64,000 bases of DNA from an uncultured Gemmatimonadales bacterium (GCA_963836815.1 CAWILD010000014.1:31615-95614), one strand, 5' to 3'; positions 16,073-36,028 are shown, numbered from the stretch's first letter. The notes: a model not told the origin generated them from the sequence alone. A program made the numbers and translations.

Positions 16073-16156
16073 GCTCCGGTGGCGAAACTGGCAAACGCTA
16101 CAGACTTAAAATCTGTTGGGAGCAATCCCTTGTGGGTTCGATCCCCACCCGGAGCA
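16073..16156 (+). tRNA. tRNA-Leu (anticodon TAA)
   Basis: Acceptor GCTCCGG/CCGGAGC, anticodon stem-loop cagaCTTAAAAtctg (TAA), long variable arm, T arm gtgGGTTCGATCCccac, discriminator A. CCA is not encoded. Confidence 0.85.
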
Positions 16157-16157
16157 T
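16105..16157 (+). repeat. attL core (3' part of tRNA-Leu), direct repeat 1
   Basis: cttaaaatctgttgggagcaatcccttgtgggttcgatccccacccggagcat is identical to 31122-31174. Confidence 0.85.
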
Positions 16158-16192
16158 AGACTTAGCTGCAACCCCCTCTTTGACCTCGGCCG

Positions 16193-16220
16193 TTTGCACC
16201 ACCGTTTGCACTACGACCCC
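16193..16220 (+). repeat. tandem GTTTGCAC motif, putative integrase arm-type site (left)
   Basis: tttgcaccaccgtttgcactacgacccc lies 36 bp inside attL. A near-identical copy at 31015-31043 lies about 80 bp inside attR. Confidence 0.5.
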
Positions 16221-17437
16221 TATCTGACTTTCCGCCGCTGCTCGGCTTTAGTCACCTGCTTCTCCCAGTATGCGCGGTCGGCTCCGGTTGGGATGAACAC
16301 GCCGTACGTCGTCAACGTGAGCATTGGGGTCGAGTGGCCGAGCTGCGTCTGCACGACGGCGATGGGCACGCCAGCCCGGAGCCGCATCACGGCCCAGTGG
16401 TGGCGGGCCGCGTGGACTTTGAGCTTGCGGGTCAGCTCGAGCCTCTCGGCCGCGATCCAGCGGTGCCAGTGGTTGACCTGATAGGGCTTCCACTCGGCAG
16501 GGAAGAGCCGCGCGGTGGGCAGCATCCGCTTGACGTGCGCCGCGATGATGGGCCACGCCCAATCGGCTACCATGCACACCCGGTCCCTGGTATGCGTCTT
16601 GGTGCCTGCGGCTCGTATCTCCCGGCTCGCGTCCCACACATCGGCTCGGGTAAGACGCAGGGCTGTGCTCACTTCGATGCCGGTCCCGTACAGAATCGCG
16701 AAGAGTGCCCGCCTTTCGGGCGTCGCTTGTGCGTCCACGATCCGCCGCACCTCACCTAACTCATAGAACTCCACCGGCGCCTTCCCCTCGGCCGGTCGGC
16801 TCACAGCATCCATCGGGTTGGCGGAGAAGTGGCCGTGAACTCGGGTCACATATTCGAAAAACAGTGACCAAGCCGAATGAACCCGCCGAAGCGTATTCCG
16901 CTTACCGGGGTAAGCCGCCGACCTCTCCGTGAGCCACGCTGTGGTGACCCGGCTCAGGGAGCGCGGCCCGCCCTCAGGCAGCAGCCAGCGGACATGCACG
17001 AGGATCTGGTCGCCATAACCCGCGGAGACGCCCCGGCTGTGCGCCGTGTGCCATGGCTTCACGAGCGGCTCCAGGTCCACGTCGGCCAGGAGCCGCCGCA
17101 TCTCGACCACGTTGTAGCGAGTGGAGACCCACAAGTCGTAGAGCCGCCCGAGTCGCGCCGGTCGATCTCGTCGGCGTGCCATGAGGACAGGCTCGAGCAG
17201 GTCCCAGGCGCGGTGCTCGGCGGCGAGGCATTCCCACATCGCCGCGATCCGTTGGGCCAGCGCCTTCCCCCCAGCGGTGAGGGGAGCTACGGTCTGCAGT
17301 TGCCTGAACCTGCGTTGGGAAGATGCAGCCGCGCGGGGCCTCTCAGAAACGTGATGTGATGCCGCCGGGTGGTCTACTACCACCTCGCCCGCACTACCTG
17401 CGTTCCTGTTAGCGCTCATGGAGGGCACCGCCCTCAC
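16220..17437 (-). CDS. tyrosine-type site-specific integrase
   Basis: 405 aa. The C-terminal catalytic region carries R (LRLTRAD), HAARHHWAV (HxxR) and LGHSTPMLTLTTYGVF (catalytic Y). Adjacent to the tRNA. Confidence 0.85.
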   Translation of the reverse strand: MRAVPSMSANRNAGSAGEVVVDHPAASHHVSERPRAAASSQRRFRQLQTVAPLTAGGKALAQRIAAMWECLAAEHRAWDLLEPVLMARRRDRPARLGRLYDLWVSTRYNVVEMRRLLADVDLEPLVKPWHTAHSRGVSAGYGDQILVHVRWLLPEGGPRSLSRVTTAWLTERSAAYPGKRNTLRRVHSAWSLFFEYVTRVHGHFSANPMDAVSRPAEGKAPVEFYELGEVRRIVDAQATPERRALFAILYGTGIEVSTALRLTRADVWDASREIRAAGTKTHTRDRVCMVADWAWPIIAAHVKRMLPTARLFPAEWKPYQVNHWHRWIAAERLELTRKLKVHAARHHWAVMRLRAGVPIAVVQTQLGHSTPMLTLTTYGVFIPTGADRAYWEKQVTKAEQRRKVR

Positions 17438-17527
17438 GGAGCCCAGCGCCCGTCTAGTCTGTCGACTGCATGCGCAGGTTAAGCGGCCAGCCGGATCGAG
17501 GCGTTCGCCGAGCAGCGCTGATCGAGC

Positions 17528-18016
17528 CTAGCGCACCACGACCCTCTTGTGCATGCCGAGCATCACATGAGGTGGCTGGCCCTCTCCATCGCGGAACTGG
17601 CACACGATCGCGTACGTTCGCCCGGGTAAGAGATCCACCATCAGCTCGCCGCCGCTGGCCTGGGCTGGACGCGCGATGAGCACACCAATCAATGCGTCGA
17701 GGAGCTCTTGGGGATCACCATCGGTGCGCAGTCGTTCCAGCAGCTGTTCAAAGCTGATGCCGGGCTTCAGCAGCGCCATGACCAATTCATGGGGCACTCG
17801 TCCTCGGTTCTGGAACGAGATTAGCGTGCGCCCACCCGAGAGTGTGTCGGAAGCCTGAAAGGCGTAGTCTGTTCCGGCAACCGTCACCGTGCTGACCCGT
17901 TGGCGGCAGCTGGGGCTGACAGTCACGAGGGCAACGAGCGCAGCGGTCCGCGCGAGGCGCTCGCGAGCACTTCGAGGGACTCGCAAACAACGCATCGTAC
18001 CTTCCTTCGCGAGCAC
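17528..18016 (-). CDS. secreted hypothetical protein, possibly cupredoxin-like
   Basis: Signal or lipoprotein leader ALVALVTVSPSC. The C-terminal GRTYAIVCQFRDGEGQPPHVMLGMHKRVVV resembles Cys/His/Met copper-site strands. The assignment is weak. Confidence 0.45.
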   Translation of the reverse strand: MLAKEGTMRCLRVPRSARERLARTAALVALVTVSPSCRQRVSTVTVAGTDYAFQASDTLSGGRTLISFQNRGRVPHELVMALLKPGISFEQLLERLRTDGDPQELLDALIGVLIARPAQASGGELMVDLLPGRTYAIVCQFRDGEGQPPHVMLGMHKRVVVR

Positions 18017-18061
18017 TGGCCGAAGCCAATAGCGCCGCAGCGGCCAAGGTAGGGGGTGGCC

Positions 18062-18115
18062 GCCTAACTAGAATTAGACTGCGACCGCAGCAGTCTAAAT
18101 CCGCTCGTGTCAGGG
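18062..18115 (+). repeat. possible short diverged attC-like site
   Basis: GCCTAAC-tagaa-TTAGACTGC-gaccgca-GCAGTCTAA-atccgctcgt-GTCAGGG. The 9-bp inner stem is perfect, but the outer boxes are complementary at only 5/7 positions. Confidence 0.3.
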
Positions 18116-18377
18116 GACCAGCCGGTTGCCCAACTTACTATAACGATTCGCGCGATGCGGACGTACGCCCTCGACCATAATCGGGGGCCGTCAGAATGAC
18201 GCTGTGGAACAAGGGATAGCGTGGGCTGGCTCTCCATGCAGGCGGCCTGCCCAGCGTCTGCTGTCGCACTTTCAACGGACCGCGACAATTCTGCATCTCA
18301 TGCCGCCCCGCGTGGCCCGGTGTATGCGGTTCCCGACTTGACCCGAGGAAATCCGTATCGAGCCGCGCGCTGGTCGC

Positions 18378-18503
18378 TTGACAGCCCCGGTACGGCACCG
18401 TACATCAGGGGTACTCCACGACAAAGGCACACCCGGCGAAAGCCGGGGCCGCAACGCGCCGAGATGCGCTCGTGCGAAGATCCCCCTCGCAGAGGAGGTT
18501 TCC
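18378..18503 (+). promoter_or_regulatory. promoter + conserved hairpin leader, copy A
   Basis: TTGACA-17 nt-TACATC, then cacgacaaaGGCACACCCGGCGAAAGCCGGGGCCGCAacgcgcc (CCCGGC/GCCGGG stem, GAAA loop), a CCCCTC..GAGGAGG stretch and GTG 18504. Repeated at 26644 and 28333. Confidence 0.5.
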
Positions 18504-18834
18504 GTGTCCACACGCCTGCCTGCCCTTCTGCTTCCGGTCATCCTCGCCTGCTCCCGGTCCACAGCCGAGAGCGCCTCTAGCGCCGCTCCTGTTAGCAGTG
18601 AGAACGATGAAGCGGCGCGCCGGGGCCGTTTCGCAGCTGGAGGATGAATGGGCAAACGCCCTCGAGGCGCACGACACGACGTTCTTGGCTCGGGTGGTTG
18701 CTCCCGACTTAACCACATCGAGTGTCACGCAGGGCCCCCTGCAGAACTCCACGTTCCACGCGCATCCCTGGAGAACGCTCTACTCGAGCGGGCCTCCGCG
18801 CCCGTCCGGCCTGTCGGCTGCATTTGCGGGTTAG
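18504..18834 (+). pseudogene. DUF4440/SnoaL-like lipoprotein, frameshifted and truncated by an attC half-site
   Basis: The lipoprotein signal VSTRLPALLLPVILAC is in one frame and ..QLEDEWANALEAHDTTFLARVVAPD.. in another, with at least two shifts. The 3' end runs into the inverted attC half-site at 18806-18838. Confidence 0.55.
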
Positions 18835-18838
18835 GCGG
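18806..18838 (-). repeat. solo attC left half (R''-L''), inverted orientation
   Basis: The reverse complement reads CCGCCTAACCCGCAAATGCAGCCGACAGGCCGG, the conserved attC left end. No matching right end was found. Confidence 0.6.
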
Positions 18839-18855
18839 CGTGCATGAATGTTCGA

Positions 18856-19056
18856 TTACATCTGCCTCTCGACCTGGCGCACGAGGCGAAAAGCCCAGAT
18901 GGCAAGCGCTGCCGGGAGGAGGAGGCCGATCACGGAGACCCAGAGCGGTACGACCCAATCGCCTAGTTCGGCCGGTACCCGGTACACAAGCCGAAGAAGG
19001 TGGCCGAGCGCGATGAGCCCGAACAAGGTGCCCGAGATTTGCAGATAGTACCTCAT
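18856..19056 (-). CDS. small membrane protein (2 TM), unknown function
   Basis: 66 aa with two hydrophobic helices (ISGTLFGLIALGHLL, VSVIGLLLPAALAIWAF). GGAAGGAAA lies 6 nt upstream of the ATG. Confidence 0.5.
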   Translation of the reverse strand: MRYYLQISGTLFGLIALGHLLRLVYRVPAELGDWVVPLWVSVIGLLLPAALAIWAFRLVRQVERQM

Positions 19057-19113
19057 TGGCTGTTTCCTTCCAGGGGCGGGCGAAGCCCCCTTTCTGACCG
19101 GGCTGGTGCTGCC

Positions 19114-19265
19114 GCCTAACGAAAATGCGCATCAGCCGCGGGGCCATCGTGCCGATGCCCGCACAAACCTACGCTCCATACGTCCCACAGCGCGCTCCAG
19201 GTGCGCTGCGACCGAGCGGAGGGCAGCGCTACCTCCGGCCCGTCGGCTGCATGCGCGGGTTGGGC
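19114..19265 (-). repeat. attC site, inverted orientation (152 bp)
   Basis: The minus strand reads GCCCAAC-ccgcgcatgcagccgacgggccgg ... gcggctgatgcgcattttc-GTTAGGC. It belongs to the long-class family found in the main array. Confidence 0.75.
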
Positions 19266-19366
19266 CGCACCCGGCGCAGCTGCGAACTATGAACCTTCGG
19301 GCCGCCGTCTTGGGCGGACTTACAGCTCCAATGAGCGCGCCTGCCACAATGCCTACCGGGTTTATC

Positions 19367-22274
19367 TCACTGCTCCTGAGTGAGGCGCTCGAGCGCCCCT
19401 CGTGCCTCGGCCACATACGGCTGAAGCTCCGGGTCAGCATGTCGCCACGCATCGGCTACGAACTGGTAGGCCCGGATGGCGGCCCTGCGCTCGCCCAGCC
19501 GCTCCGCCGCCCGCGCCCCTTCGAGGACACCGATGACGCGCAAGCACTGAAATGGGAGACACTGCCGTCAATTCCGATCTCTCGAGCACGGTCCGATCAT
19601 CCCCGCGGGTGGCCTGCAGCCCCAACCTGACAAGGGGCTCGAAATAGCAGACGGCACACAGGGAATCGGGAAGCTGCTCGAATCGCCGAAGTGCATCGGC
19701 CGTATCATGCCGCACCAGCGCGAGGTACGCGTGCGCGGCCTCGCCTCCGAATACGGCCTCCTCGCGCAGTACCGGGTCCGGGCTCGACCTCAACAGTGAG
19801 TCGGCGAGCTCCCGGAATCGCAGGATCGAGCGGGCGTCACCATGGCTCGCCCACCAGGGGAGCGCGACGCGCGCGGTCCGGAGATCGCCAGCGCGTAGCC
19901 ATCGGTCGAAGTAGAACCCGGCGGTGTCGGCGGGGTAGAGACCCTGGAGGGCTAGTTCCGCGAACACTCCGGGAGCGGCGATGGGATCAGGGCTCAACGC
20001 CGCGGCTGCTTCACGCAGATGTCCGCGGAAATGAAGCGTGCTGGCCAGCTTCCTGCGACGCATCTCGCTCGTGAGCCAGGCGGCGGAGCTGTCGGGACTT
20101 GCCGCCAGGGCCCGCGCGACGCGCACGGCGACCTCCCCGGTGTCGGCCGCGTTCACCCCTGCGTACCAGGCCTTGTGGAGCGTGATGGCCGACGCCAGCT
20201 CGAGCCGTCGCTGCATCGCCGATCCGGATTGCCTGGGGTCGGGCAGATCGAGTCCGAGGCGCGCCCCGTCGGCGGTCACGTCGCCGGGGGCAAGCTTGAG
20301 GTACTCCACCGCGTAGCGCCGTGCTGCGTCGAGACCACGAGCGGCGGATGCCATCTCGAAGGGGTGGATGTAGGCCGGGGCGTAGGCGGAATCCAGCGCG
20401 ATTGCACGATCGAAGGCAGCAATCGTCTCGGAGATCGGGATCGCTCGGCCCTGGTGACGGTAGACCTCACCAAGTGTGTACCAGGCATCGGTGTCATTGG
20501 GGTACCGGCGCACGGCCTCTTGCGCGGTCGCGAGAAGTCGTCGGTAGGCCGCCCACGTCAGCATCCCCTCCAGCTGGTTGGAGTCCACCGCGACGAGGAG
20601 GCTGTCACGCGGCGCGAGACCATGATTCAGCGCCCCGGCCCGGAGCGAGAGTGCGACGGACAGAGATTCGCCGTCGGCTCGTTGCCAGCCCACCACGCGG
20701 CCGAGCCGCCAGAGCGCCAGCGCGAAGCTGCTGTCGAGGGCTGCAGCGCGCTCGTAGGAAGCCAGCGCCGAGTCCCACGCGCCGTGGCGGAACCACTGCT
20801 CACCCTGCAGAAACGCCTTCATCGCGGCCGGCGAGGTCGAGCCGAGCGATGCGATGCCCGTGAGCTCGACGCGTCTGGCACGGCCGAGCGCACCGAGGAC
20901 TCGCACCGCGAGCGAGTCGCCCAGTCGGTCGATCCTGCTCACCTCGTCCTGCAGCTCGAACTCTCCCAGCGGTCGTCCGGTCTCGACGTCCAGCAGGGTG
21001 GCGCGGACACGGGCCGAGTCCCTGCCGGCGGGTACCAGGCTCCCGAAGAGGCTCAGCCGCGCACCGGTCCGCCGGCCGAGCTCGGCGGCCGCCAACGGAT
21101 CAGCGTGCCCGGACCAGCGCCGTACGACGGCCGTGGGCGGTACCGTGCGAATCGGGCCCGCGCCATCGAGGTTGCGGGAGAGCAGGTCTACCAGCCCCTC
21201 GCGCCACAACTCGAATGAGGGTGAGAGGACGTCGAATGGAGCAACCGCGAGAAGATCAGTATCGAGCGCGCGGGGCGCCGCCTTCTGACGCCACAGCAGC
21301 GCCACCGCCGCTGCGCCCACGGCGATCGCGAGTCCCAGGCCGACCAGGACCGCCCGGCCCGGTCGACGAACTCTTGACGACGGCGGCGGCGCGGACAGCG
21401 CCCGCAGGAATTCCGCGACTGTGGCGAACCGATCGGCCGGGACGACCGCCAATGCCTTTTGAACGGCCGCATCCACGGCCGGGGGCACCGTCGGGCGCAG
21501 CCGACTCAATGCCGGAGCGGGTTGGATGAACCGCTTCGCCACGACCGCCTGCGGCGTCGGCCCGGTGAAGGGCGGCTCTCCAGCGAGCATCTCGTGGAGC
21601 ACGCATCCCAACGCATAGATGTCAGTCCGGGCGTCCACCAGCCCGGCGCCGGCCTGTTCCGGGCTCATGTACGTCGGCGTGCCGACGGCGAGGCCGGTAC
21701 CGGTGAGCTCCTCGCCACCAGCCGCCTCGACCGCACGCGCGATCCCGAAATCCCCCACCCGGGCGTGCCCATGGGCGAGCAGGATGTTTTCGGGCTTGAT
21801 GTCCCGGTGGATCACGCCGTGGCGGTGAGCGTAGTCCAGCGCGTCCCCTACCTCCCGCGCAATCGCGAGCGCGTCGTCCAGCGGCAGCTGCGGCTCCCTT
21901 CGGAGCCGATCCCGGAGACTTTCCCCCTCGACGAATGGCATCGTGTACCACAGGCGACCGAGGGTCTCGCCCGAGTCCAGCACCGGCAGGATATGGGGGT
22001 GATCCAGGCGTGCCGTCAGCTTGATCTCGCGGAGGAAGCGCTCCGGTCCCAGTGCCGCCGCGAGCTCCCCGTGTAGCAGCTTCAGGGCGACGTGACGGTC
22101 GTGTTTCTCGTCGCGGGCGAGATAGACCGTCGCCATGCCACCGCGCCCGAGCTCCCGGTCAATCATGTAGCGGCCCCGAAGGGCATCAGTCAGAGACGAA
22201 TCAATCGCGGTCACGAGACTGCCAGGTGGGAGACTACTAGAAGGTGATGACAGGATCCCGATGAATATTAGCAA
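19367..22274 (-). CDS. Ser/Thr protein kinase with large TPR-like C-terminal region; one frame break near the 3' end
   Basis: Hanks kinase motifs GRGGMATVY, VALK, HRDIKPENIL, DFG, TPTYMSPE, followed by a TM segment and a helical-repeat region. The last ~70 codons continue in another frame (..LRVIGVLEGARAAERLGERRAAIRAYQFVADAWRHADPELQPYV..) to the stop at 19367. Confidence 0.85.
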
Positions 22275-22301
22275 GGTTCACCGGGTGACACAGGCCAGCT
22301 G

Positions 22302-22385
22302 GGTGAACAGCGGCAGGCTATCTATCTCTTAACCCTTCGAAGCTCCACGGGGTTAAGAGAGAGAGATAGAGCTGAGCTGTTCACC
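22302..22385. repeat. 84-bp near-perfect palindrome (MITE-like or terminal-repeat pair)
   Basis: ggtgaacagc-ggcagg-ctatctatctcttaaccc / gggttaagagagagagatag-agctga-gctgttcacc. One arm recurs at 62165-62204. Confidence 0.6.
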
Positions 22386-22715
22386 TTTCCCTTAGAGCTC
22401 AAGTCTGACCAACAGCGTCATTACGGCAGCTATCGAGCACCCTTGAGCGCGAACGCGCCCTCAGCGCATAGAATTAGAGCGCAGGTCACAGGAAGTTTGG
22501 ATCTGACACGACGTGATTTGGGCTGGCGGGCACCGCAGTCTACTTCTAGTTGGGCAGCAGGGGAGGAGTTCAAGTCACGGCCGGGATACGCAGGAACAAC
22601 AGCGTGCCGCGACTCACACTTGAAGGCACCATGTTTGGTCATGTAATCGGCTTGCCCCTCCTCGCTCTCGTGGCCACTCCGTTTACATTGCCTATACACT
22701 CCGCATCCAAGTCTT

Positions 22716-23549
22716 ATGAGTGACCCATTAGCAGCGGCCAAGCTCAAGGCTGAGACAGCCTACAATGCTGCCGCAGACTACTTCGACGCCGAGCCCTTGG
22801 GGTTCTGGGCGCGGTATGGCCGGCGGACCGTCGATCGGCTGCGGCTGCATCGTGGGGCGCACGTACTGGATGTGTGCTGTGGCACCGGTGCCTCCGCGTT
22901 ACCTGCGGCGGAAGCCGTCGGCCCCGAGGGCCACGTCATCGCAGTTGATCTTGCGGGCGAACTCCTCGCCCTTGGCCAGGCCAAGGCCCAGGCCGCAGGG
23001 CTGCAGTGCGTGGAGTTCCGTCGTGGGGACATGACAGACTTGGGCTTTCCCGATCGTCATTTTGACGCGGTGGTCTGTGTGTTTGGGATTTTCTTTGTCC
23101 CGGACATGGAGCACCAGGTGGCGGAGCTATGGCGCATGGTGCGGCCCGGCGGGCAGCTGGCGATCACCACGTGGGGCACACGATTTTGGAGCCCGGCGTA
23201 CGAGATTTGGTTGGAAGCCGTGCGCCGAGTGCGCCCCGATCTGTATACCGCATTTAACCCTTGGGACCGCATCACGACACCGGAGGCGGTCCGCACGCTC
23301 CTCCACGACGGTGGTGCTCAGAGTATCGATGTTGCTGCAGAAGAGGGGTACCAGAAACTGCGCACGCCAGAGGATTTCTGGATCATGGCACTGGGGAGTG
23401 GCCTGCGGTGGACGATCGATAAGATGGGCTCCGAGTTGGCACGCGAGGTGAAGCACGAGATCCTAGACCGGCTTGCTGCCGCGGGGGTCGATCGCGTTGC
23501 AACCAACGTCATCTATGCCACCGCCGAGAAGCCGTCAGGCCCGGCCTAA
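22716..23549 (+). CDS. class I SAM-dependent methyltransferase
   Basis: VLDVCCGTGASALPAAEAV (motif I), VIAVDLAGELL, and FDAVVCVFGIFFV. The stop TAA lies inside the R''-like box of the following attC. Confidence 0.8.
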   Translation: MSDPLAAAKLKAETAYNAAADYFDAEPLGFWARYGRRTVDRLRLHRGAHVLDVCCGTGASALPAAEAVGPEGHVIAVDLAGELLALGQAKAQAAGLQCVEFRRGDMTDLGFPDRHFDAVVCVFGIFFVPDMEHQVAELWRMVRPGGQLAITTWGTRFWSPAYEIWLEAVRRVRPDLYTAFNPWDRITTPEAVRTLLHDGGAQSIDVAAEEGYQKLRTPEDFWIMALGSGLRWTIDKMGSELAREVKHEILDRLAAAGVDRVATNVIYATAEKPSGPA

Positions 23550-23703
23550 TATCGCTTGGGCCGACCGCACTAGTTCTAGCATCCCCTGGCTGCCGCCCGC
23601 CCCCGACCACCGCTCGGCCACAGCGCGCCCTGGCGCGCTGTGGAAGGAAGGTTTGTGCGCGGGGAACGATGATGCCCGGTAACTGATGCGCAAGTCGCTA
23701 GAC
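23544..23703 (+). repeat. degenerate attC site (160 bp)
   Basis: GCCTAAT..gggccgac ... ggaaggtttgtgcgcgggg..ggtaactgatgcgcaagtc-GCTAGAC. The interior matches the long-class attCs, while both outer boxes are mutated. Confidence 0.55.
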
Positions 23704-23963
23704 CCCGAAGGAGAGCCTATGCCGCGTTGGGAATACGCATCCGGAGTCTCCCAGGAGCGCCAGCCCGGTCCATGGCGACGAGTAAAGAGCCTGCCACCCA
23801 TCGGGCGTGACCTGGAGGGTACTGTAGTACGCTTCGAACCACACCGCGGCGACTCCTGGGAGAGGCGCTCGGCCCCGACCACCGGGGGAGGCGTGGACTG
23901 GCCTTCGAGAGGGACTGCGACGGCAGCGCGGGATAGCGCAAGGGTGACGCACAGGAGACGCAT
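23698..23963 (-). CDS. small secreted hypothetical protein (frame break; weak call)
   Basis: The signal-like start MRLLCVTLALSRAAVAVPLEG is in one frame and ..VWFEAYYSTLQVTPDGWQALYSSPW.. in another, ending at 23698. Confidence 0.25.
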
Positions 23964-24185
23964 ACTCTCCTCCATCCATCAGCTGGTTGGCAAGGGAGCT
24001 CGCGCTCGAGCGTGTAGCGGTCGCCAGGGCGGCCTTGAACCTTTCTAGGTCTCGCTCGGAGAGACCTGTCGGACTGGGGTATGTTAGGCTACAGGCCCCA
24101 GGTCCCTGTCGGACCAGACACGCCCGCCGGAGGTTGGTCGAGAAAGAGAGGACAGTTGGGAAAGCGGCCCTGCTCGGGATCGACG

Positions 24186-24510
24186 CTACCCCGAATCGAG
24201 TGCCCGGATCGGCCCAGTCTCCCGGATCTCGACCGGTACCCCTTCGAGTTTGGAGGGGATCGCGCGTGCCAGCTCTGAAGGTCTTCCGCACCACCAGCAC
24301 CAGGATGCAGGGCCGGCCGCCGCACACACCCTCGGCCGTGCCGACCACTCCCGGGCGCGCCATGAGCCGCTCGGTGTGGCGGCCGAGCACCTGGGCGACA
24401 GTGTCGTGCTGGATAGTCCGCCCCTCGGGTCCGCGCGGCGGCCCTGCCGACAACCGGCACCCGCTCGCGGTGGCGAGCGCGAGGAGCGCCGGGAGCACGA
24501 GCCCACGCAC
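24186..24510 (-). CDS. stand-alone protease-propeptide-like lipoprotein; one frame break
   Basis: The lipoprotein signal LLALATASGC and HTERLMARPGVVGTAEG..ILVLVVRKT | SELARAIPSKLEGVPVEIRETGPIRAL parallel the pro-region of the adjacent S1 protease (HTDRLLRSEGVVGTAIG..VQIFTKT..RGLPISLDGVPV). The shift is near 24282. Confidence 0.5.
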
Positions 24511-24517
24511 CGCGCGA

Positions 24518-25611
24518 TCAGGTGCCGTCGATCGTCACCCCGAGGGCGTTGAGCACGGCGCCGATCGGATTGGCGATGGTGTACCCGTTCGAGCTCCCGG
24601 CGAAGAGCAGGGCGACGGGCCGCTTGCTGGAATTGTTGGTGACGATGAGCGAGCCCGAGTCGCCCGCGCGGGAGAACTGCCCCGGCCCTCGGACCACCAC
24701 CTGGCCGACGAAACGCGCGGTCCCATGGCTGTAGGCGACGTTGACGGTGGCGTTGATGCCGACCACCGCGCCAGTGGTGCGCCCCGTAGTCCGGCCGTAC
24801 TTCTGCACCGGCTGATTGAGCACGGCAGCAATGATCGCGGAGCTGGGGACTCCATACCCGTCGGATGGCGTGCGCCGGCCCAGATTGGCGGTGCTGCTGA
24901 TAGCCATGGCGGCATCGACCTTGTTGTTCGCCGTGGTGGAGAAGACGATCCTGACGAACTTGCTGAGGCTGCCGATGATGGCGTCTGACCCGCTGGCGCA
25001 GGCCAGATCGTACCGGCCGGGCTGGAGGACCTTGCTGCCGATCGGGGCCGAGTTCTCCAAGGCGTAGACGTGGTTGTTACTCACCGCATAGACCGCGGTG
25101 CCGGACTTGCCCCTAAAGCCGATGGTTCCGGCGGAGCACTGGCCCTTGTTTCCGGTGGAGACCCCGATTGGCACCGGCCGGGGAAACCTCGACTTGGGGT
25201 TGATGCTGAGGGCCGCGGCGGCCGGAGCGGCGGACGGCCGCGGGGATCGCGCGGATCCTCGCCCAGTAACGACTGGAGAGACGGGCACCCCGTCCAAGCT
25301 GATCGGCAGCCCGCGGATCACGCGGCGGTCTTGGTGAAGATCTGGACGGCGACCCGGCCGTTCGGCGCGAGCCCGATCGCGGTGCCGACCACGCCCTCGC
25401 TCCGGAGCAGTCGGTCGGTATGCCGGCCCTGGGCCGCGAGCGCCTGGGCCAGTCCGGGCGGCTCGGCCCCGACGGCGGCGAGGTTAGGCGGCGCGGTATC
25501 GGGAGGCTCGGTTGCGTCGTGGGTGCAGCTGAGGACCGGAAGGGCGAAGGCGAGGAGCAGCATCCACGGGGAAAGAACCCGGCCCCGGAGGCCGCGGAAG
25601 ATACTGCGCAT
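24518..25611 (-). CDS. secreted S1 (chymotrypsin/alpha-lytic-type) serine protease with pro-region; one frame break
   Basis: ATG 25611, signal MLLLAFALPVLSC and a pro-region. After a 1-nt break at 25318-25321 comes the protease domain with ..SNNHV.., ..NKVDAAM.., GDSGS (catalytic Ser). Confidence 0.8.
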
Positions 25612-25768
25612 ATCTGGAGACCTCTCGGGAGCGCAGGGAAGTGAGTTGAGATCTTGAAGATAGACCGAGTCGATCAGCAGGCTAGAGGTTTCAGACGGCC
25701 GGTGGAAAGGGCGCGGAGAATGGTGCGGAGACACGGGTACACGGCGAACAGCACGATCACTCGTCAAC

Positions 25769-26173
25769 TCAAGGCGTCGAGCCGGTGCGCGGGTCGTCCT
25801 TCGGGTCGACGTAGGTGATCGCAAAGGGACCTGTGCTCTGGACCTCCAACATGACGCGGCTGGCCGCATGTACGAAGTGAGGCTCCTTCGCGCCGATCGT
25901 GACGGGATCGTTGGGGGCCATCGCCTTCATGGCCTTCTCATGCCACTTCGCTCCGTGGCCCAGGTGCAGCGTGCCCTCGAGCAGGCGGAGCGTCTTGTTC
26001 GTGGGCGTGACAAGCACAGCGCCATAGCCGGGAAGAGCTCCCCCATAGTCCTTGACTCCTGAAAAGTGACCGCGGCTATACTGCGGCCATGCCTTCAACC
26101 GATCGTCCCAACCGAAGGCCTCGCTTTCGCGAGCAGCTAGGCTGGAGCCATGTGCTGCTCGCATGGGGCGCAC
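25769..26173 (-). CDS. hypothetical protein (possibly cupin-fold)
   Basis: 134-codon ORF with beta-rich sequence LRLLEGTLHLGHGAKWHE..PHFVHAASRVMLEVQSTGPFAITYV. The N-terminal boundary is uncertain. Confidence 0.4.
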   Translation of the reverse strand: MRPMRAAHGSSLAARESEAFGWDDRLKAWPQYSRGHFSGVKDYGGALPGYGAVLVTPTNKTLRLLEGTLHLGHGAKWHEKAMKAMAPNDPVTIGAKEPHFVHAASRVMLEVQSTGPFAITYVDPKDDPRTGSTP

Positions 26174-26550
26174 TCCTCTGTGCCTGTCAGGTCGACCCGC
26201 GGCGCTCGCCGGGGGACAGCCTGGTCACCTGGTCTGGCGAGGAACTTCGCGACGCACCGCCGCCGCCGCCGCCGCGCGATACCTCGCCTTTCAAGAAGGT
26301 GGAGCGTCTACCGCTAGCCACGGACTCAACACGGGTGCTCGCCGTTGCGGAACAACCGCCGGATGATCGCTGGTGCCGTGGAGACACCCTTGTCTGGTTC
26401 TGGCACGAGGGGCTGGAGGTGTCCTTCTTGGACGGCTACATCGTGGAGAGCCATCTCGCTTTCCCAGCAGGTTTCGAGGGCAACAGGCACGTTCACAGGC
26501 CGGTTGCGGAACGCCGATGCACGGTTGTCGGCGCGAGGCGTGGCTCTTGA
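26152..26550 (+). CDS. hypothetical lipoprotein
   Basis: GTG 26152 gives VLLAWGALLCACQ (lipobox), followed by a Pro-rich linker and a beta-rich body. The ATG 26089 alternative overlaps the neighbouring gene. Confidence 0.35.
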   Translation: MLLAWGALLCACQVDPRRSPGDSLVTWSGEELRDAPPPPPPRDTSPFKKVERLPLATDSTRVLAVAEQPPDDRWCRGDTLVWFWHEGLEVSFLDGYIVESHLAFPAGFEGNRHVHRPVAERRCTVVGARRGS

Positions 26551-26643
26551 CCCATGAAAGGTCGATGCTGCTAGACTAGCGGCATGACCCCTTCATATTG
26601 GCCCTGAGCGCTGGGAGGTCCCCCTGCTGATCGCACCATAGCA

Positions 26644-26824
26644 TTGCGTGATATAGCGCAACGCTATATACTGTACCTGCCAACCGAGAGAGCACACCCG
26701 GCGAAAGCCGGGGTCGCAAAGCCACGGATCCTCGCCTCCTCCGCGACGCCGGCCTTCGGCCAGCCACCACCGAGGTCCCAAGATCGCCGAGCTGCTGCTA
26801 TTGCAGGCTCGGCGTTTTCTTGTT
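26644..26824 (+). ncRNA. candidate small RNA: promoter + hairpin-leader module (copy B) ending in an intrinsic terminator
   Basis: TTGCGT-17 nt-TATACT; core GCACACCCGGCGAAAGCCGGGGTCGCA at 26692-26718; CCTCGCCTCCTCC stretch; stem GCCGAGC[tg]CTGC-TATT-GCAGGCTCGGC followed by GTTTTCTTGTT (26786-26824). No start codon follows at the position seen in copies A and C. Confidence 0.35.
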
Positions 26825-27011
26825 CCGGTGGGCTTCATAACACTCGCCCACCCCGCCGTCTTGCCGAACCCGAACAGCTAGCTGCACCGACCAGATCGAG
26901 CAGCGTCTACCACGCTCGGAGGTTGCAAGCACGACGAGGGCCACGGGCGTAATGACCCAGACCGCTGAGCCTGCCACGAGACGGGTCTCACTCTACCCCT
27001 AGGAGGCTTCC

Positions 27012-28012
27012 ATGAAGCCAATTGCCATTAGCAGTCTGAGGTGCTCAATGCGGAAAATGGCGCTTGGATTTCCTATCCCCTTGGGAGGGAGCATGCACGT
27101 CCCGTTACATGCGCTCGAAGCCTGGAGCGCTCCGCGGCTCGCCCGCAGCGCGCACACCGCCGTCCGTGTCTCGCTTGGGATTGTCCTCGGATCAGGTGCC
27201 GCCCTGCTCACGGCGTGCGGAGATTCACCGGGCCGCCCCCTCCCTCGCCTGCCGCCGAAAATCCAGCATTTGTTGTGGGCGGCACGAGCGACGCGGCGAA
27301 CCGGTACGCGAACGTCGGCGTCCTGCAGCTCAACGTCGGCGGCGACGACTGGTTCGACTTCTGCTCGGGGACGCTGGTCCGCCCGAACGTCGTCCTCACG
27401 GCCGCCCACTGCACGGACTTCCTGGTCGAGGAGGGGGAGGACGGGTTCGGCCCCGCCGACCTGCGGATCTCGTTCGATCCGGAAGGCGACGCTCCGTACT
27501 CGACGGTCGACCACATCGTCGTGCATCCGGACTGGTTCACGAGGCAGGAGCCGTGCCGAGGCAACTCGAAGCAGCTCTGCCTGGCGCCTCCGGCCGAGGA
27601 CATAGGGCTCGTCTTCCTGGACGCTCCGGTCGGCGGCATCACCCCGGCGCCCATCGCCGATCCGACGTACCTGGCCGGGCTCAGCCTCACTGGCGAGACG
27701 TTCACCGTCGTGGGATACGGCGTCGATGCGTTCATCACCGGGAGCACGTTCGCCAACCATCCGGTCGTGTTCGTCGACGGCATCCGGAGCTACCGGGACG
27801 TCTCGGTGATCACGACGCACGACGCGTTCCCGGATCGGTTCCTGAAGATCACGCAGAGCATGTGCTTCGGCGACTCGGGCGGCCCGCTCTTCCACGGGGC
27901 CACGCTCGTCGGAATCAACACCTGGACGTTCAGCCTGCGGTGCTCGGGGCCGAACTTCGCGTACCGCGTCGACTCGCCGGCAGCGCAGAGCTTCCTCGCG
28001 GCGAACCTCTAA
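27012..28012 (+). CDS. secreted trypsin-like S1 serine protease; one frame break
   Basis: AGGAGG precedes ATG 27012 (ATG 27093 also has GGGAGGGAG). Lipobox AALLTAC. After a shift in C-run 27236-27240: VVGGT.., TAAHC (His), DIGLV (Asp), GDSGGP (Ser). Confidence 0.8.
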
Positions 28013-28332
28013 GTGACGATCTAGTCACCCAGCCTGGGCAGCACCCAGGCGACTCTTCCGAGCCCGCCTGCTTCCGCGGGCTCAGCATCACTAGTTTGCC
28101 TTCTTGGTCGGTCACCAGCGGACGGCCAGCCCGACAAGCCGGAGGATCTGTCAGCCCGTCGAGCTCGAGTCTTGGGGACACGCCCCGGAGTGTTGAGAAG
28201 CCGCGTGGTCTGGCACTAGCCCGGCACTATGAAGCACGGCGCACGGGGATATTCTGCGGTGCACCGCGTGTGATGCCACAAGCACTTGGCGAAGGGCAGG
28301 CGGCCGCCAGTCCTCATAATGCCGGCCCGCTC

Positions 28333-28456
28333 TTGACGGCCCCTGTACCGCGTCCTATCTCAGGGCCTACCATCCCTCGACAAAGGCACACCCGGCGAAA
28401 GCCGGGGCCGCAGCGCCACGGGTCCTCACGCTCGGTCAGACGGACGGGAGGAGGGC
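28333..28456 (+). promoter_or_regulatory. promoter + conserved hairpin leader, copy C
   Basis: TTGACG-17 nt-TATCTC, ctcgacaaaGGCACACCCGGCGAAAGCCGGGGCCGCAgcgcc (core 28385-28412), then a TCCTC...GGGAGGAGGG pairing and ATG 28457. Confidence 0.5.
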
Positions 28457-28714
28457 ATGCACAAGCCAGGGAAACGAGGCGAGCGCCAAGTGCGCCTCAA
28501 GCCACAATACGCACACCTGTACCGAGGCATCCCCCCGAACGAGTGGTGGCCGGCGTGGCTGCTGGCAGAGCAACTACTTGCCAGGGCGGAAGCCGAGGGC
28601 GTTCCCGAGCAGCAACGGATTTGCGATCCCAGCCATTTTGTGTTTCGGGGTGGGCAGAGCCGGGAGCCGCGTCTCCAGGATCTGCGAACCCGGCGATCAG
28701 ACGTCACTCCGTGA
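28457..28714 (+). CDS. small hypothetical protein downstream of leader copy C
   Basis: 85 aa with a strong SD (GGGAGGAGGG) 4 nt upstream of the ATG. MHKPGKRGERQVRLKPQYAHLYRGIPPNEWWPAWLLAEQLLARAE... No family recognised. Confidence 0.5.
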   Translation: MHKPGKRGERQVRLKPQYAHLYRGIPPNEWWPAWLLAEQLLARAEAEGVPEQQRICDPSHFVFRGGQSREPRLQDLRTRRSDVTP

Positions 28715-28753
28715 ACGCGTGGTAAGAGACGGAGGAAACACAGGCGGGTGCCA

Positions 28754-30835
28754 CTACTGGATCTGGACGATCTTGGCGACGGACGGCACGCCGTTCTCGT
28801 CGAGCACGAACATCATGTAATGTCCCGGCGGCGCGAGGGTGGCCCTGAGGGGCGCCGTCACCGTGACGCTGGACGCGTCGCGGGTGGTGATCGGGAGGTA
28901 GTTGAGCCGCTGGTTCATGTTCGTGGCGTGTGTGACGCTCGAAAGCCGGATGAACGTGACCTTGGCGATGCCCGCGGCGTTCGGCGTCCCAATCGCGAAG
29001 CTCTGCCCATACGTCACGCTGGCAGGTGCCGTGCTAATCGTCGGGCGGGTAGCGTCGGTGCCATCCAGGTTGAACAGGTAGGGGGGCGAGAAGATCTCGC
29101 CGGAGTAGTCGTTCTGCAAGCCGCTCGCGAACGGTTGCCCGCTGCCGACCGACAGGACCCGGCCGTCGGGGAGCAAGAGCGCATTGGAGTGGTACAGCCG
29201 GTAGTGGGTCTGCCGTGCGAGTTGAGTCCATCCGCCCGTCGGACTCCACCGTTCGGCCGCCAGCACGTTGGCATTGGTGGGCGGGCTGTTGAAGCCGCTG
29301 GCGTTGGTACCGCCAGTCACAAGCACCGTCCCGTCCGCCAGGAGCGTGGCGTTCATCTGCCGGCGCGCGACTCTCATCGCCCCGGCCGGCTGCCAAGTGG
29401 CCCCCACGTTCAGGTCGATCCTCTCTGCCGTGCTGGTGGGTCCTCCGCCACCGACGAGGAGGATCTTGCCGGGCTCGTACATCACCGCCGAGCCGTAGTC
29501 TCGGTATCCGTACGCGCTGGAGGGCCCCGTGCTCTTGCCGCCCGCTCCCTCGGTGGTCAGATACCCGGTGGCCTGGGCCGGACCGGCGATGAACACCGAG
29601 CCGCTCGGCGCCACGAACATCATCGGATAGTAGTTGATGCTCGAGGCGGCGGCGGTCAGGGAGCGCAAGGAGGTACCCGAGGCGCTCAGCACCTCGGGAA
29701 TCGTGTTGAGCGTCCCATCGGTGCCGCCGCCTGACACCACGAGCGCTTCGCCGTTGGGGAGAGCCAGGACGCTGGGATACCACCGCCCGTTCTGCATCGT
29801 CGGGCCGGGAGACCAAGTCTTCGACACGTAATCAAAGAGATTGGTCACCGCGATCCCGATGTTGTCGGTGCCGCTGTGCCCGCCCATCACCATGAGCCTG
29901 CCGTCGGGAAGCAGCGCGTGTCCGCTGCAGAACAGGTCGGCGGGCCTGGTAATGCTCTCGAACGAGCCGGTGGTCGGATCCCAGAGCGTCTGATGCCGGT
30001 CGCTCCTGCCCCACGTCAGGACCTCGCCGTCCGGCAGGACGCTCGCATGGATCGACAGGACCGGCCAGTCGAACGGATTCCCCCACTCTCCCACCAGGGC
30101 CTTGTTGGCGGGCTTGTCGAAGCTCACGACCACCGACGTGGACTGCGCGAGCGTCACCGCGCAGCTCCCCGAGCTCTTGCCGATTCCGGTTCCCGCGGTT
30201 TGACAGCTGCCGCCTGCCCACGCCTTGAGGTAACTGCCGGTCGACGCCGTGGCCGTGACCGTGACGAGCGTGTTGAGCGCGTAGTTGGCGCTGCAGCCGG
30301 TCGCCGCCGCAGTGCCCCCGCTGATGCTGCAGGCGATCCCCAAGGGGCTGGACGAGACCGTCCCATCACCGGCGGCACCGCCCGTGATACTCAGCGTCGC
30401 GACATTGGTCTGCGGACGGAAGTTGATCGTCACGACCGCATCGCTCGTCATCGGGATGACGCAGGCCAGCACATTCTCGGGAGAAGGCGGACAGTTCCCG
30501 CTGACGATCGTGAAGGTGGCGCCGGCGGCAGGCGCGATGTGGAGGGTCACGATGGCCGTGGACTTGTACCCCTGCTCGCACTTGCCGCTGGACGCGCCGC
30601 CGGGCACGATCGTGCAGCTGATACCGCCCCGCTCCGAGGTAACGACACCCCCCATCGCGCTGCCCGTACCGCTGACGCGGAGCTGGTAGCGGGCCCCGAC
30701 TCGGGCAAACTCCGGCTCGGTGGCCTGGTCCTGGCAGCCGAAAAGGAGGAGCAGCGCGGCGCCGGCGCCGGGGAGACACCGTGCGCCGCGGGCGACGAAC
30801 GAACCACACATGTGAGCGCTCAGGGTATGGGGCAA
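28754..30835 (-). CDS. glyoxal/galactose-oxidase-like lipoprotein (kelch propeller + DUF1929-type C-terminal domain)
   Basis: Lipobox ALLLLFGC and N-terminal Ig-like repeats, then ..LPDGEVLTWG..FCSGHALLPDGRLMVMGGH..RWYPSVLALPNGEALVVSGG..YHSNALLLPDGRVLSVGSG..PPGHYMMFVLDENGVPS. Confidence 0.8.
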   Translation of the reverse strand: MPHTLSAHMCGSFVARGARCLPGAGAALLLLFGCQDQATEPEFARVGARYQLRVSGTGSAMGGVVTSERGGISCTIVPGGASSGKCEQGYKSTAIVTLHIAPAAGATFTIVSGNCPPSPENVLACVIPMTSDAVVTINFRPQTNVATLSITGGAAGDGTVSSSPLGIACSISGGTAAATGCSANYALNTLVTVTATASTGSYLKAWAGGSCQTAGTGIGKSSGSCAVTLAQSTSVVVSFDKPANKALVGEWGNPFDWPVLSIHASVLPDGEVLTWGRSDRHQTLWDPTTGSFESITRPADLFCSGHALLPDGRLMVMGGHSGTDNIGIAVTNLFDYVSKTWSPGPTMQNGRWYPSVLALPNGEALVVSGGGTDGTLNTIPEVLSASGTSLRSLTAAASSINYYPMMFVAPSGSVFIAGPAQATGYLTTEGAGGKSTGPSSAYGYRDYGSAVMYEPGKILLVGGGGPTSTAERIDLNVGATWQPAGAMRVARRQMNATLLADGTVLVTGGTNASGFNSPPTNANVLAAERWSPTGGWTQLARQTHYRLYHSNALLLPDGRVLSVGSGQPFASGLQNDYSGEIFSPPYLFNLDGTDATRPTISTAPASVTYGQSFAIGTPNAAGIAKVTFIRLSSVTHATNMNQRLNYLPITTRDASSVTVTAPLRATLAPPGHYMMFVLDENGVPSVAKIVQIQ

Positions 30836-31014
30836 GCTATCTTAGCTCCGCCTTTCCCGGTGCGTAAGAGGGACCTTCGATGTTGGTGCGGGCTGTGTGT
30901 GGCAGGCCGTTGTTGGCAGGGTCAGGTCTACCGACCCTGCGCTCCGGAGCAAGAGGTCGCGGAACAGGGGGAAGGGTAGGGGAGTGGATCGGCCGAAGCC
31001 TACTCGGGAGAACC

Positions 31015-31043
31015 TTTGCACCACCGTTTGCACTATAGACCCC
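31015..31043 (+). repeat. tandem GTTTGCAC motif, putative integrase arm-type site (right)
   Basis: tttgcaccaccgtttgcactatagacccc, compared with 16193-16220. Confidence 0.5.
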
Positions 31044-31121
31044 ACGATTCCACGGGTTTTCGCGGCGCTTCTCGAAAGCCTTCCCCTCGGAAGAGTCCCA
31101 CTTTCCGAGGCCCACAGGCCC

Positions 31122-31174
31122 CTTAAAATCTGTTGGGAGCAATCCCTTGTGGGTTCGATCCCCACCCGGAGCAT
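31122..31174 (+). repeat. attR core: duplicated 3' part of tRNA-Leu, direct repeat 2
   Basis: Identical to 16105-16157. It lacks the 5' half of the tRNA, so it is not a gene. Confidence 0.85.
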
Positions 31175-31556
31175 GGAGTTGGCCGCAGTAGTCTTCGTTA
31201 CCGCACCCCTTCGCACCACCGGCTGCTTCAACGAGGTGTAACTTGGCCGAGGACGATGTCGACCGCAGCACGGGCGAAACCCGCAACCAAGCCCAGGCGG
31301 TGATTCACAGTCCCGAAGCCAACCTGCTGTGGCCCCAGAGCACCTAAGGATCATCGCAACTATCCTCGCCGGCGTGAGCCTCCAGTGTCTCACGCTGGCG
31401 GCGCGTGCGTGGTTGCAGCCCGACGCAGCACCCGGCGCAGCGAGCCCGGAGCGGACCGCCTTTCGCGGAGGCTTGATACTCTTCGTTGTTTAACTCGGCG
31501 TACTCGGCGCGCTGTGGCTGATCTCGGTTCCCCTCGGCTGGAGGCCCGATCGTGTC

Positions 31557-31844
31557 TTGTGGGTAGGGCTCGGCTCCTTCCTTGCCCTCATGACCGTAGC
31601 TCGACCTTGGTGGTTTTGGGAGAACTACAGGGCGCGATGGCTGCGAGGTGCCATTGGGGACGAAGCGACGGCCGCCATCTATCTGGTCATCGCTGGGCTG
31701 ATGATCTGGGTGGGCCTCTTCACCGACTGGAGGTTCGGACGGCATCATGTCGCATGGGCAGGCCGCATGGGCAGGCCAACCTTCCTGCCTTCCGAGCCTG
31801 GCTGCATTTGGAATGGGATTGGCGGATCAGGTCCCGGGAGCTAG
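31557..31844 (+). CDS. small membrane protein, unknown function
   Basis: TTG start, 95 aa, two hydrophobic segments (VGLGSFLALMTVA, AAIYLVIAGLMIWVGLF). Confidence 0.4.
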   Translation: MWVGLGSFLALMTVARPWWFWENYRARWLRGAIGDEATAAIYLVIAGLMIWVGLFTDWRFGRHHVAWAGRMGRPTFLPSEPGCIWNGIGGSGPGS

Positions 31845-31885
31845 ACTAGAGATCACCCGGCAACACCGACGTCCCCGAGAATCAT

Positions 31886-32953: not shown

Positions 32954-33143
32954 CTAGTCCCGCCGGTCAGCGAGGCTTAGGGGTTCCCGGATGGAGGAGT
33001 GAGTAGCTCGGCTGTAACGGCTGCCTGCTCCTCGCGGGCCCTGAGACGTAGCCGTCCCAGGCCTTGCATTGTTTGCGCTCGCAAGAAAGATTGCTTACCC
33101 CCTACATTTAGTTGCTTGCCGGATCGTGGTCCGGGGAGACACA

Positions 33144-33308
33144 ATGGATCGGCACTGTCCTCGCTGCGGCATTCCAGTCGGTGAGCAAATCCGCTGTCCT
33201 CTCTGCGACACCAGCATGGTCCGCGTCAACCTTCGGCGCACTCTGCTCTGGGCACTGGTTGTGGAGGAATACCTCGTAGCCCTGGTCGTTCTGCTGCGCT
33301 TTCGATGA
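33144..33308 (+). CDS. zinc-ribbon membrane-anchored small protein
   Basis: GGGGAG precedes ATG 33144. The CPRC..(10)..CPLC ribbon is followed by the TM helix LLWALVVEEYLVALVVLL. Confidence 0.45.
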   Translation: MDRHCPRCGIPVGEQIRCPLCDTSMVRVNLRRTLLWALVVEEYLVALVVLLRFR

Positions 33309-33419
33309 CCTGCGGAGCTCCGGCTCAGCTCTCGTAGACTCACACACCTTGGCATCAAACGAACGAAGGCAGGCGGTGTCGGGGATTCTAGTAAGCGTCC
33401 ACCCGCTCACTTCCGGCGC

Positions 33420-35922: not shown

Positions 35923-36028
35923 GCCTAACCCGCGCATGCAGCCGACGAGCGCTGGCGCTAGACTCCGTTCGGGTGGCACCCTCCTGCGCGAGCTTGATTG
36001 CCCGCGCCTGATGCGCAATTCGTTAGGC
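35923..36028 (+). repeat. attC site (106 bp)
   Basis: GCCTAAC-ccgcgcatgcagccgac ... cgcgcctgatgcgcaattc-GTTAGGC. Confidence 0.8.

Follow-up and report, generated by a model that had tools for sequence, protein, structure and literature searches.

A predicted integrative island with paired arm-type motifs at a tRNA-Leu(UAA) gene of an uncultured Gemmatimonadales bacterium

Features of the tRNA-Leu(UAA) locus

The DNA analysed was a stretch of 64,000 nucleotides from an uncultured Gemmatimonadales bacterium (GCA_963836815.1, CAWILD010000014.1:31615-95614), referred to below as the window. The segment under study, 16073-31174, begins with a tRNA-Leu gene and spans 15 kb. A preliminary description, made from the sequence alone, had regarded it as a site-specifically integrated element. 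The two ends of the segment and its right-hand surroundings comprised the following features.

16073-16156, plus strand: tRNA-Leu(UAA), anticodon taa, the integration target (ARAGORN; Rfam tRNA, 58 bits)
16105-16157, plus strand: attL core, 53 nt, exact repeat of 31122-31174
16193-16220, plus strand: near-arm (P'-like) site pair on the integrase side, two words 12 bp apart, 35 nt from the core
16220-17383, readable to 17437, minus strand: tyrosine integrase (int) gene (Pfam Phage_integrase, 2.5e-10; PHROG integrase, 3e-28)
17384-17485, minus strand: truncated integron attC-like repeat abutting the int start, in the position of an excisionase (xis)-like gene of relatives
31015-31042, plus strand: far-arm (P-like) site pair with the same words in the same orientation, 86 nt ahead of the attR core
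31122-31174, plus strand: attR core, a copy of the tRNA 3' half, exact repeat of 16105-16157
31175-33419, plus strand: probable remnant of an older element, with a decayed arm motif at 31210-31230 and an open reading frame (ORF) of 355 aa at 31886-32953; the conserved flank starts at 33420
33420-34130: methyltransferase-like gene, start of the conserved right flank (synteny with L064, L065 and L066)

Leu(taa) was the only tRNA that ARAGORN detected in the 64-kb window. It began 22 bp past the stop codon of galK, which was identified by Pfam matches. The 53-nt repeat began at the 5' border of the anticodon loop and closed 1 nt beyond the 3' end of the tRNA. The element was bounded by direct repeats, one of them serving as the 3' part of a complete tRNA gene. 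The recurrence of the tRNA end at 31122-31174, noticed previously, was confirmed as an exact match, and for a 23-nt part of the core, shuffled sequences predicted 0.00 matches, compared with two in the window. Because the attR copy comprised the 3' half only, it was not a second tRNA gene. The GC content changed from ~0.70 to ~0.66 at 16 kb.

The arm motifs lay just inside the cores. A sequence of 21 nt, TTTGCACCACCGTTTGCACTA, was found exactly at 16193-16213 and 31015-31035, with 0.01 matches expected from shuffles. Read in int orientation (minus strand), the near-arm pair was AGTGCAAACGG TGGTGCAAACGG, located between the int stop codon and the tRNA. The preliminary description had given a 28-bp tandem motif inside both ends. 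The 21 nt were identical at both, whereas the 28-mer with one wildcard did not fit both copies: the spacer between the 21-nt motif and GACCCC measured 1 nt (C) at attL but 2 nt (TA) at attR. At 31210-31230 lay a third copy, decayed and identical in 15 of 21 positions, which followed the attR core at an offset of 36 nt, the same as that of the 16193 copy after attL.

The stop codon of int was 63 bp from the tRNA end, as had been stated earlier. In an alignment of 16 sequences (the window int and 15 homologues), the catalytic residues R264, K280, R345, H347, H368 and Y378 were invariant. The catalytic domain was intact, with 79% identity to homologues and no stop codons. The beginning of the gene differed from this pattern. 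Compared with all homologues, codons ~4-22 were in the wrong frame; a 1-nt deletion lay near 17316 and an indel near 17372. The counterpart of these codons was readable solely in another frame, closed by TAG TAG. A DNA alignment with three homologues placed a 1-nt deletion at CCCAACG-CAGG. Residues 1-52 of the window int showed no in-frame homology and were disordered in a protein model. The out-of-frame stretch encodes part of a putative arm-binding domain. No second integrase or integrase remnant was found right of attR, either by tblastn with 7 homologues or with a hidden Markov model (HMM) on the six-frame translation.

Integrase family and arm-type site pairs

The closest int homologues were 73-79% identical and all originated from metagenomes. 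Within reference genomes, the family was present in metagenome-assembled genomes (MAGs) of Gemmatimonadales only, and the homologues of GalK likewise indicated Gemmatimonadales. In about 20 loci from genomes and metagenomes, int ended ~80-240 bp from a tRNA gene. The neighbouring tRNA was most commonly Met, and Lys and Leu(taa) also occurred, with the same tail-to-tail geometry. The homologues began with MV(Y/F)(R/K)R..G...(Y/F).FQAR...G.KQL. An AlphaFold model of the intact homologue P0001, with a mean predicted local distance difference test (pLDDT) score of 92, showed strands at residues 2-4, 11-16 and 22-26 and a helix at 33-52 (pLDDT >90) preceding the core-binding and catalytic domains. 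A Foldseek comparison aligned lambda Int chains of full length (1z1b, 1z1g, 5j0n) to this model over 374-383 columns, whereas most of the other top matches (XerA, Tn1549 Int 82-397, integron integrase, Cre) covered only ~265-330 columns. The modelled fold and the alignment to lambda Int are consistent with an arm-binding N-terminal domain in the intact relatives. No arm-binding family of Pfam was matched, even at E values up to 1. IMG/VR held no close relative of the integrase, and a degenerate arm pattern gave only chance-level matches there.

Arm-type pairs comparable to those of the window were sought blindly in 18 loci, as the longest tandem word with a period between 11 and 13 nt, within the 110 nt preceding the tRNA. 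The best word had a 12-nt period in 17 of the 18 loci, and its length beat 95% of shuffles (P <=0.05) in 14. The word differed between integrase clades. All relatives had a comparable pair between int and the tRNA, composed of the following words.

TAGTGCAATGG x2: L054, tRNA-Leu(taa)
TGGTGCATT x2: L034, tRNA-Leu(taa)
GTGCAA: L030 and L032, tRNA-Lys
GTGCAG: L010
GTGCCA: L009, L027 and L028
TAGTGCCAG: L011
GGGTGCA: L012 and L013
GGGTACA: L014
TACGTCCA: L006, L020, L021 and L035
GATAGTTCCGC: L007
CTGCCGTCCA: L008

Four elements had both ends in view, and in each the pair recurred on the far arm, beside the second core copy. Besides the window island, these were the following.

L008: 10-kb element, 44-bp core (tRNA-Met), pairs 47 and 102 nt from the core
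L035: 40-bp core, pair on both arms
L064: 54-bp core, pair on both arms

The far arm of L064 was homologous to that of the window over ~110 nt. L065 held a different word pair, CTGTTCTA x2, exactly at the aligned far-arm position. Since position and phasing were conserved while the word changed with the integrase, the tandem words are well supported by comparison as arm-type sites of a heterobivalent integrase, with binding predicted. The tandem motif, earlier put forward as a candidate integrase arm-binding site, was thereby placed in a series of conserved pairs covarying with clade in 18 loci and located on both arms in four elements.

The clade with the arm word TACGTCCA had its adjacent tRNA-Met in the opposite orientation. 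In L035 (3327-3366, 8285-8324, 8442-8516), it was the 5' half of the tRNA, as far as the anticodon loop, that was duplicated as the core; an intact tRNA-Met followed further downstream.

Lambda-type integrases are heterobivalent and act on arm-type sites, of which the lambda arms carry 2 plus 3. The Int of mycobacteriophage L5 uses pairs of arm sites and a tRNA-Gly core. The island family resembles these systems in its tyrosine recombinase of three predicted domains, the N-terminal one modelled as three strands plus a helix in intact relatives, and in repeated arm words flanking a core copied from the 3' portion of a tRNA gene. It further resembles them in an int gene reading toward attL and in a small xis upstream of int in relatives. 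It differs from lambda in having one strictly 12-bp-phased pair per arm instead of 2 plus 3 sites, and from lambda-type integrases in general in its restriction to Gemmatimonadales and the lack of a Pfam arm-binding match. Unlike lambda and L5, the island is not a phage, and this copy is without xis. Sublocation classes of tRNA-linked islands, including identity blocks that start in the anticodon loop, were reportedly defined by K. P. Williams in 2002. The identity block of the window, from the anticodon loop to the tRNA 3' end, is of this kind, as are those of L008 (44 bp, tRNA-Met) and L064 (54 bp). Nothing essential distinguishes the window from such islands, its crossover position being a predicted one.

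Altogether, 16158-31121 is very probably an integrative genomic island that was put into the 3' half of a Gemmatimonadales tRNA-Leu(UAA) gene by a heterobivalent tyrosine integrase of the lambda type. Its circular attP would have consisted of the far-arm pair, 86 nt, the 53-nt copy of the tRNA 3' half, 35 nt and the near-arm pair, followed by int. A crossover with the tRNA gene on the chromosome, probably located in the anticodon loop, would have restored a complete tRNA at attL, with the duplicated 3' half ending up at attR. The N-terminal domain of the integrase is predicted to bind the 12-bp-phased word pairs on both arms, while the core-binding and catalytic domains would act at the core. 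The xis-like gene appears to have been replaced by integron cassette debris abutting the int start, and the 5' end of int looks damaged. The tRNA-Leu site would act as a hot spot collecting elements and remnants of the same family, including the 2.2 kb right of attR.

Related loci and alternative explanations

Relatives of the locus were found via GalK. Protein identity between L065 and the window was 91-97% for FolD through RecN, 80% for GalK and 81% for the methyltransferase-like gene at 33420-34130. L064, L065 and L066 had the galK-tRNA flank and the methyltransferase-like right flank of the window, but inserts of 1.9-3 kb in place of the 15 kb. In L064, L065 and L066/L067, galK was followed by tRNA-Leu(taa) and an arm-site pair (GATTGCACC...TGCAC). 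None of these inserts contained an integrase, and a second core copy, exact or with one mismatch, lay 1.9-3 kb downstream, ahead of the methyltransferase-like gene. The integrase-less inserts had the following positions.

L064: 12138-14171
L065: 11260-14260
L066: 7348-9204

Each carried one or two genes, and this cargo differed, encoding TauE, secreted proteins or a beta-propeller protein. Both arms of L064 carried a matching site pair; in L065 and L066 it was confined to the tRNA side. The attR core of L064 ended within the ATG of the conserved methyltransferase-like gene. The P0005 contig had a 77%-identical int on the galK side, preceded by an ORF of 74 aa where relatives carry xis, and its cargo was again different. 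L063, with 99% GalK identity, had attL and the arm motif as in the window and diverged from it 8 nt before the int stop codon. The 16-nt pattern of L063 (14 nt beyond the arm motif plus 2 preceding nt) was not found elsewhere in the window. Within the L066 insert, near 7520-7560, GCGTGGCACTAA occurred twice in tandem; it is the reverse complement of TAGTGCCA, the arm word of another clade, and may be debris of another element.

The 15 kb was thus polymorphic in presence and absence at the tRNA-Leu locus, as seen in L064, L065 and L066. Because the relatives hold different inserts at the locus, the 15 kb is strain-specific and the site a hot spot. In this comparison of sequences, the 15 kb is a site-specific insertion, in agreement with the preliminary description. 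The comparison of related genomes that had been suggested there showed other inserts in place of the 15 kb. Sequence and comparison likewise bear out the integration event and the repeat architecture.

The 2.2 kb between attR and the conserved flank are probably what is left of an earlier element of this family, displaced by the present island. This reading is based on the near-arm-like DNA that follows attR and on the conserved flank, which starts only at 33420. In 31175-33450, no further decayed core was found, nor homology to the flanks of relatives beyond the start of the methyltransferase-like gene. Cis-mobilizable elements (CIMEs) and tandem accretion at att sites are described for the ICESt1/ICESt3 family (PMC5704250). 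The inserts of L064, L065 and L066 share the defining feature of CIMEs, in that attL and attR are kept and int is lost, and L064 also keeps arm sites. The same possibly applies to 31175-33419, where a right-hand att is no longer detectable. The decayed arm right of attR resembles CIME accretion, suggesting a newcomer beside an older remnant. The inserts differ from CIMEs in that no conjugation system is visible. The window island itself is not a CIME, since int is still present.

Several observations weigh against the island as interpreted here. Neither a circular junction nor an empty site was observed, and no truly empty tRNA-Leu site was present among the relatives examined. No transfer, replication or phage genes were found in the island. 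Its interior is a mosaic in which attC-like repeats occur and the region at 18-19.4 kb is possibly decayed, so that the 15 kb may have been acquired in more than one step. In addition, the frameshifts in int may be assembly errors, in which case the integrase is perhaps intact.

A composite origin, through successive integrations, deletions and capture of integron cassettes, with attL and attR possibly stemming from different events, is a tentative alternative that is less probable than a single integration but has several observations on its side. These are the decayed arm copy directly after attR, the unlike arm words at the two ends of L065, the inverted tandem TAGTGCCA pair of another clade inside the L066 insert, the three attC-like units in the island and the divergence of L063 shortly before the int stop. 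The arm motifs of the window are nevertheless identical over 21 nt and its cores over 53 nt, for which one attP is the simplest source.

A fully functional, excisable element is rather unlikely. It would require that the int frameshifts are assembly errors and that excision is brought about by the integrase alone or by an unrecognised directionality factor among the small ORFs. The exact 53-bp cores and 21-nt arm motifs agree with it, as does the intact catalytic domain. So do the indels in essential genes of the assembly: relative to intact orthologues in L065, ispA (7726/7728) and dxs (9248-9273, 10054/10056) were frameshifted in the window, and L064, a related MAG, showed many split genes. 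Because the essential dxs and ispA are also frameshifted, the single-base indels may be assembly errors. The window assembly probably contains such errors, and its frameshifts should not be taken as pseudogenes without read support. The frameshifts of int and a split protease gene (25318-25321) had been considered as signs of decay, a view that was withdrawn once the frameshifts in dxs and ispA were found.

Against excisability stands the absence of the xis-like gene. In 16 relatives, a helix-turn-helix gene of 75-85 aa was located immediately upstream of int, fused to int in P0008. It was not found in the island with an HMM built from the xis-like ORFs of these 16 relatives or by tblastn, and the best match in the window (E 0.05) was outside the island, so that the lack of an excisionase gene reported earlier was upheld. 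At the junction of the attC-like repeat and the int start, ...GTGCGGGCGAG is followed directly by GTGGTAGTAG. Base-calling errors cannot explain the missing xis or the attC junction, both of which are structural changes. The exactness of the att repeats says little on activity, because integrase-less inserts also have exact or near-exact repeats. The earlier suggestion that exact repeats point to present excisability is weakened accordingly by these inserts, by the loss of the xis-like gene and by the out-of-frame 5' end of int. As judged from the sequence, autonomous excision has probably been lost in this copy of the island, and current self-excision is doubtful, though far from negligible.

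The island is most improbably a prophage, an integrative conjugative element (ICE) or an integrative mobilizable element (IME). With such elements it shares a tyrosine integrase next to a tRNA gene. Moreover, the genes around P0004, a 73%-identical homologue, are phage-like, among them DUF5131 and a weak Mu Gam match; neither attP nor a tRNA was found on the contigs with the P0004 int (L001-L004). No capsid, terminase, portal, relaxase or type IV secretion system (T4SS) family was matched by the larger island ORFs scanned, with Pfam on all of them and NCBIfam and PADLOC on most. A PHROGs scan covered int and a 162-aa ORF, of which int alone matched. Small or frameshifted ORFs could hide relaxase- or T4SS-type genes. 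The best IMG/VR integrase was only 29% identical. Finally, a repeat arising by chance or by segmental duplication of a tRNA fragment, without site-specific recombination, has nothing in its favour beyond the bare existence of the repeat and can be practically dismissed, given the 0.00 matches expected from shuffles, the adjacent integrase, the matching arm motifs and the like architecture in many relatives.

The island is an ordinary tRNA-targeted integrative island and leaves the understanding of how such elements work unchanged. The series of arm words and the integrase-less, att-bounded mini-inserts are its most useful by-products. Gemmatimonadota are an abundant and poorly cultured soil phylum, and to our knowledge their mobile elements have hardly been described. 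The locus and its relatives form a natural series with a fixed site geometry (words paired at a distance of 12 bp, the near-arm pair ~35-70 nt and the far-arm pair 85-100 nt away from the core) and with varying words and tRNA targets, potentially usable for work on arm-site specificity or for integration tools for Gemmatimonadota. The locus also illustrates a tRNA hot spot that gathers integrase-less remnants and exchanges material with a neighbouring integron cassette array. A speculative and improbable extension is that the tRNA-Leu(UAA) site serves as a platform for cargo exchange, in which integrase-less modules of one or two genes (L064, L065, L066) would be moved in trans by integrases like that of the window. 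Arm words and N-terminal domains would then co-evolve as a specificity code, and the window island would be an integrase-carrying 'driver' with captured integron cassettes.

Cargo, integron repeats and riboswitch candidates

The interior of the island contained the following features.

17528-18016, minus strand: ORF of 162 aa with a putative signal sequence, cassette-like, followed by a truncated attC-like repeat
18417-18464, plus strand: GEMM-I-like riboswitch candidate, only the first hairpin aligned (Rfam, 36.3 bits, E ~1e-5, below the gathering score)
~18745-18836, minus strand: truncated attC-like copy
19114-19265, minus strand: complete attC-like unit (GCCCAAC ... GTTAGGC), 168 nt downstream of the kinase gene
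19434-22274, minus strand: Hanks-type Ser/Thr kinase with TPR repeats (Pfam Pkinase, 2.6e-48)
22716-23549, plus strand: S-adenosylmethionine (SAM)-dependent methyltransferase (Pfam Methyltransf_25, 7e-23)
23698-25869, minus strand: protease-related genes (Pfam, translations)
26682-26800, plus strand: GEMM-I-like riboswitch candidate showing both hairpins, ahead of the trypsin-like gene (Rfam RF03167, 48.1 bits, E 5e-9, not reaching the gathering score of 59)
27041-28012, plus strand: trypsin-like S1 serine protease with LTAAHC and GDSGGP motifs (Pfam Trypsin, 2e-18)
28376-28421, plus strand: GEMM-I-like riboswitch candidate, only the first hairpin aligned (Rfam, 37.2 bits, below the gathering score)
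28754-30835, minus strand: glyoxal/galactose-oxidase-like Kelch lipoprotein with the lipobox LFGC (Pfam GO-like_E_set, 7e-28; Glyoxal_oxid_N, 6e-16)

The kinase, methyltransferase, glyoxal-oxidase-like lipoprotein and trypsin-like gene of the preliminary cargo list were recovered. Of the three protease-related genes named there, the trypsin-like one was well supported. The third, ORF 23698-24510, resembles the Nal1_C-like serine protease in a 39-aa N-terminal segment only; the latter is itself split into ORFs 25318-25869 and 24518-25321 in different frames. The 162-aa ORF matched no family in Pfam, PHROGs, NCBIfam and PADLOC scans. A role of the kinase (PD-T4-6, mad6) and the methyltransferase (mad2) in defence systems was considered and rejected, the PADLOC/NCBIfam matches covering generic catalytic domains only. 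In the divergent intergenic region between kinase and methyltransferase, a 28-nt inverted repeat with a 28-nt spacer (22302-22385) may be an operator or terminator.

A 22-nt word related to the attC-like units occurred 17 times in the window, with three copies inside the island, 14 at 35-64 kb and none at 1-16 kb. The unit was 106-152 nt long, started with GCCTAAC 12-55 nt past the stop codons of small genes and ended with GTTAGGC. Alignment of 11 complete units gave 24 predicted consensus pairs, six of them with compensatory changes. In the consensus fold, R'' pairs with R', the L-box stem is interrupted by unpaired columns 16, 21 and 23, and the inner variable stem covaries. The three island units were inverted relative to the array, and only that at 19114-19265 was complete. 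The array itself was composed as follows.

35923-36028, 48837-48976, 49442-49585, 50310-50447 and 53004-53145: attC-like units, 106-144 nt
53706-53834, 56550-56689, 57294-57426, 57889-58029 and 63298-63404: attC-like units, 106-144 nt
near 35313, 58504, 62107 and 63875: truncated copies

The array units follow small unrelated genes, among them cupin, DUF1203, M50 peptidase, AHSA1 and PLD. Integrons are already known in Gemmatimonadota, and a cluster of attC sites lacking an integron integrase is termed CALIN (PMC8618304). Because the repeat has the architecture of attC, 35-64 kb looks like an integron cassette array of the CALIN kind. The likeness covers the R''/R' boxes GCCTAAC/GTTAGGC of the 17-copy repeat, the L-box stem with unpaired bases and the covarying variable stem. 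It concerns 35-64 kb and the three island units, not the integration system of the island itself. An integron integrase (IntI) was not found in the 64 kb, where the integrase HMM on the six-frame translation gave the island int only, and the array continues off the window end. A prophage at 35-48 kb was considered and rejected, Pfam and PHROGs showing ordinary cellular genes in this region. An Rfam scan of 34-64 kb returned nothing.

Within the window, a 42-nt repeat was confined to the island and resembled the Rfam aptamer c-di-GMP-I-GGC of the GEMM-I clan, with 48, 37 and 36 bits against a gathering score of 59. Promoter-like boxes, TTGAC(A/G)-17-TA(C/T)(A/C)TC, were located upstream of the riboswitch candidates at 18417 (TTGACA-17-TACATC) and 28376. 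The riboswitch-like repeat was also present in the mini-insert of L065, at 12705-12800.

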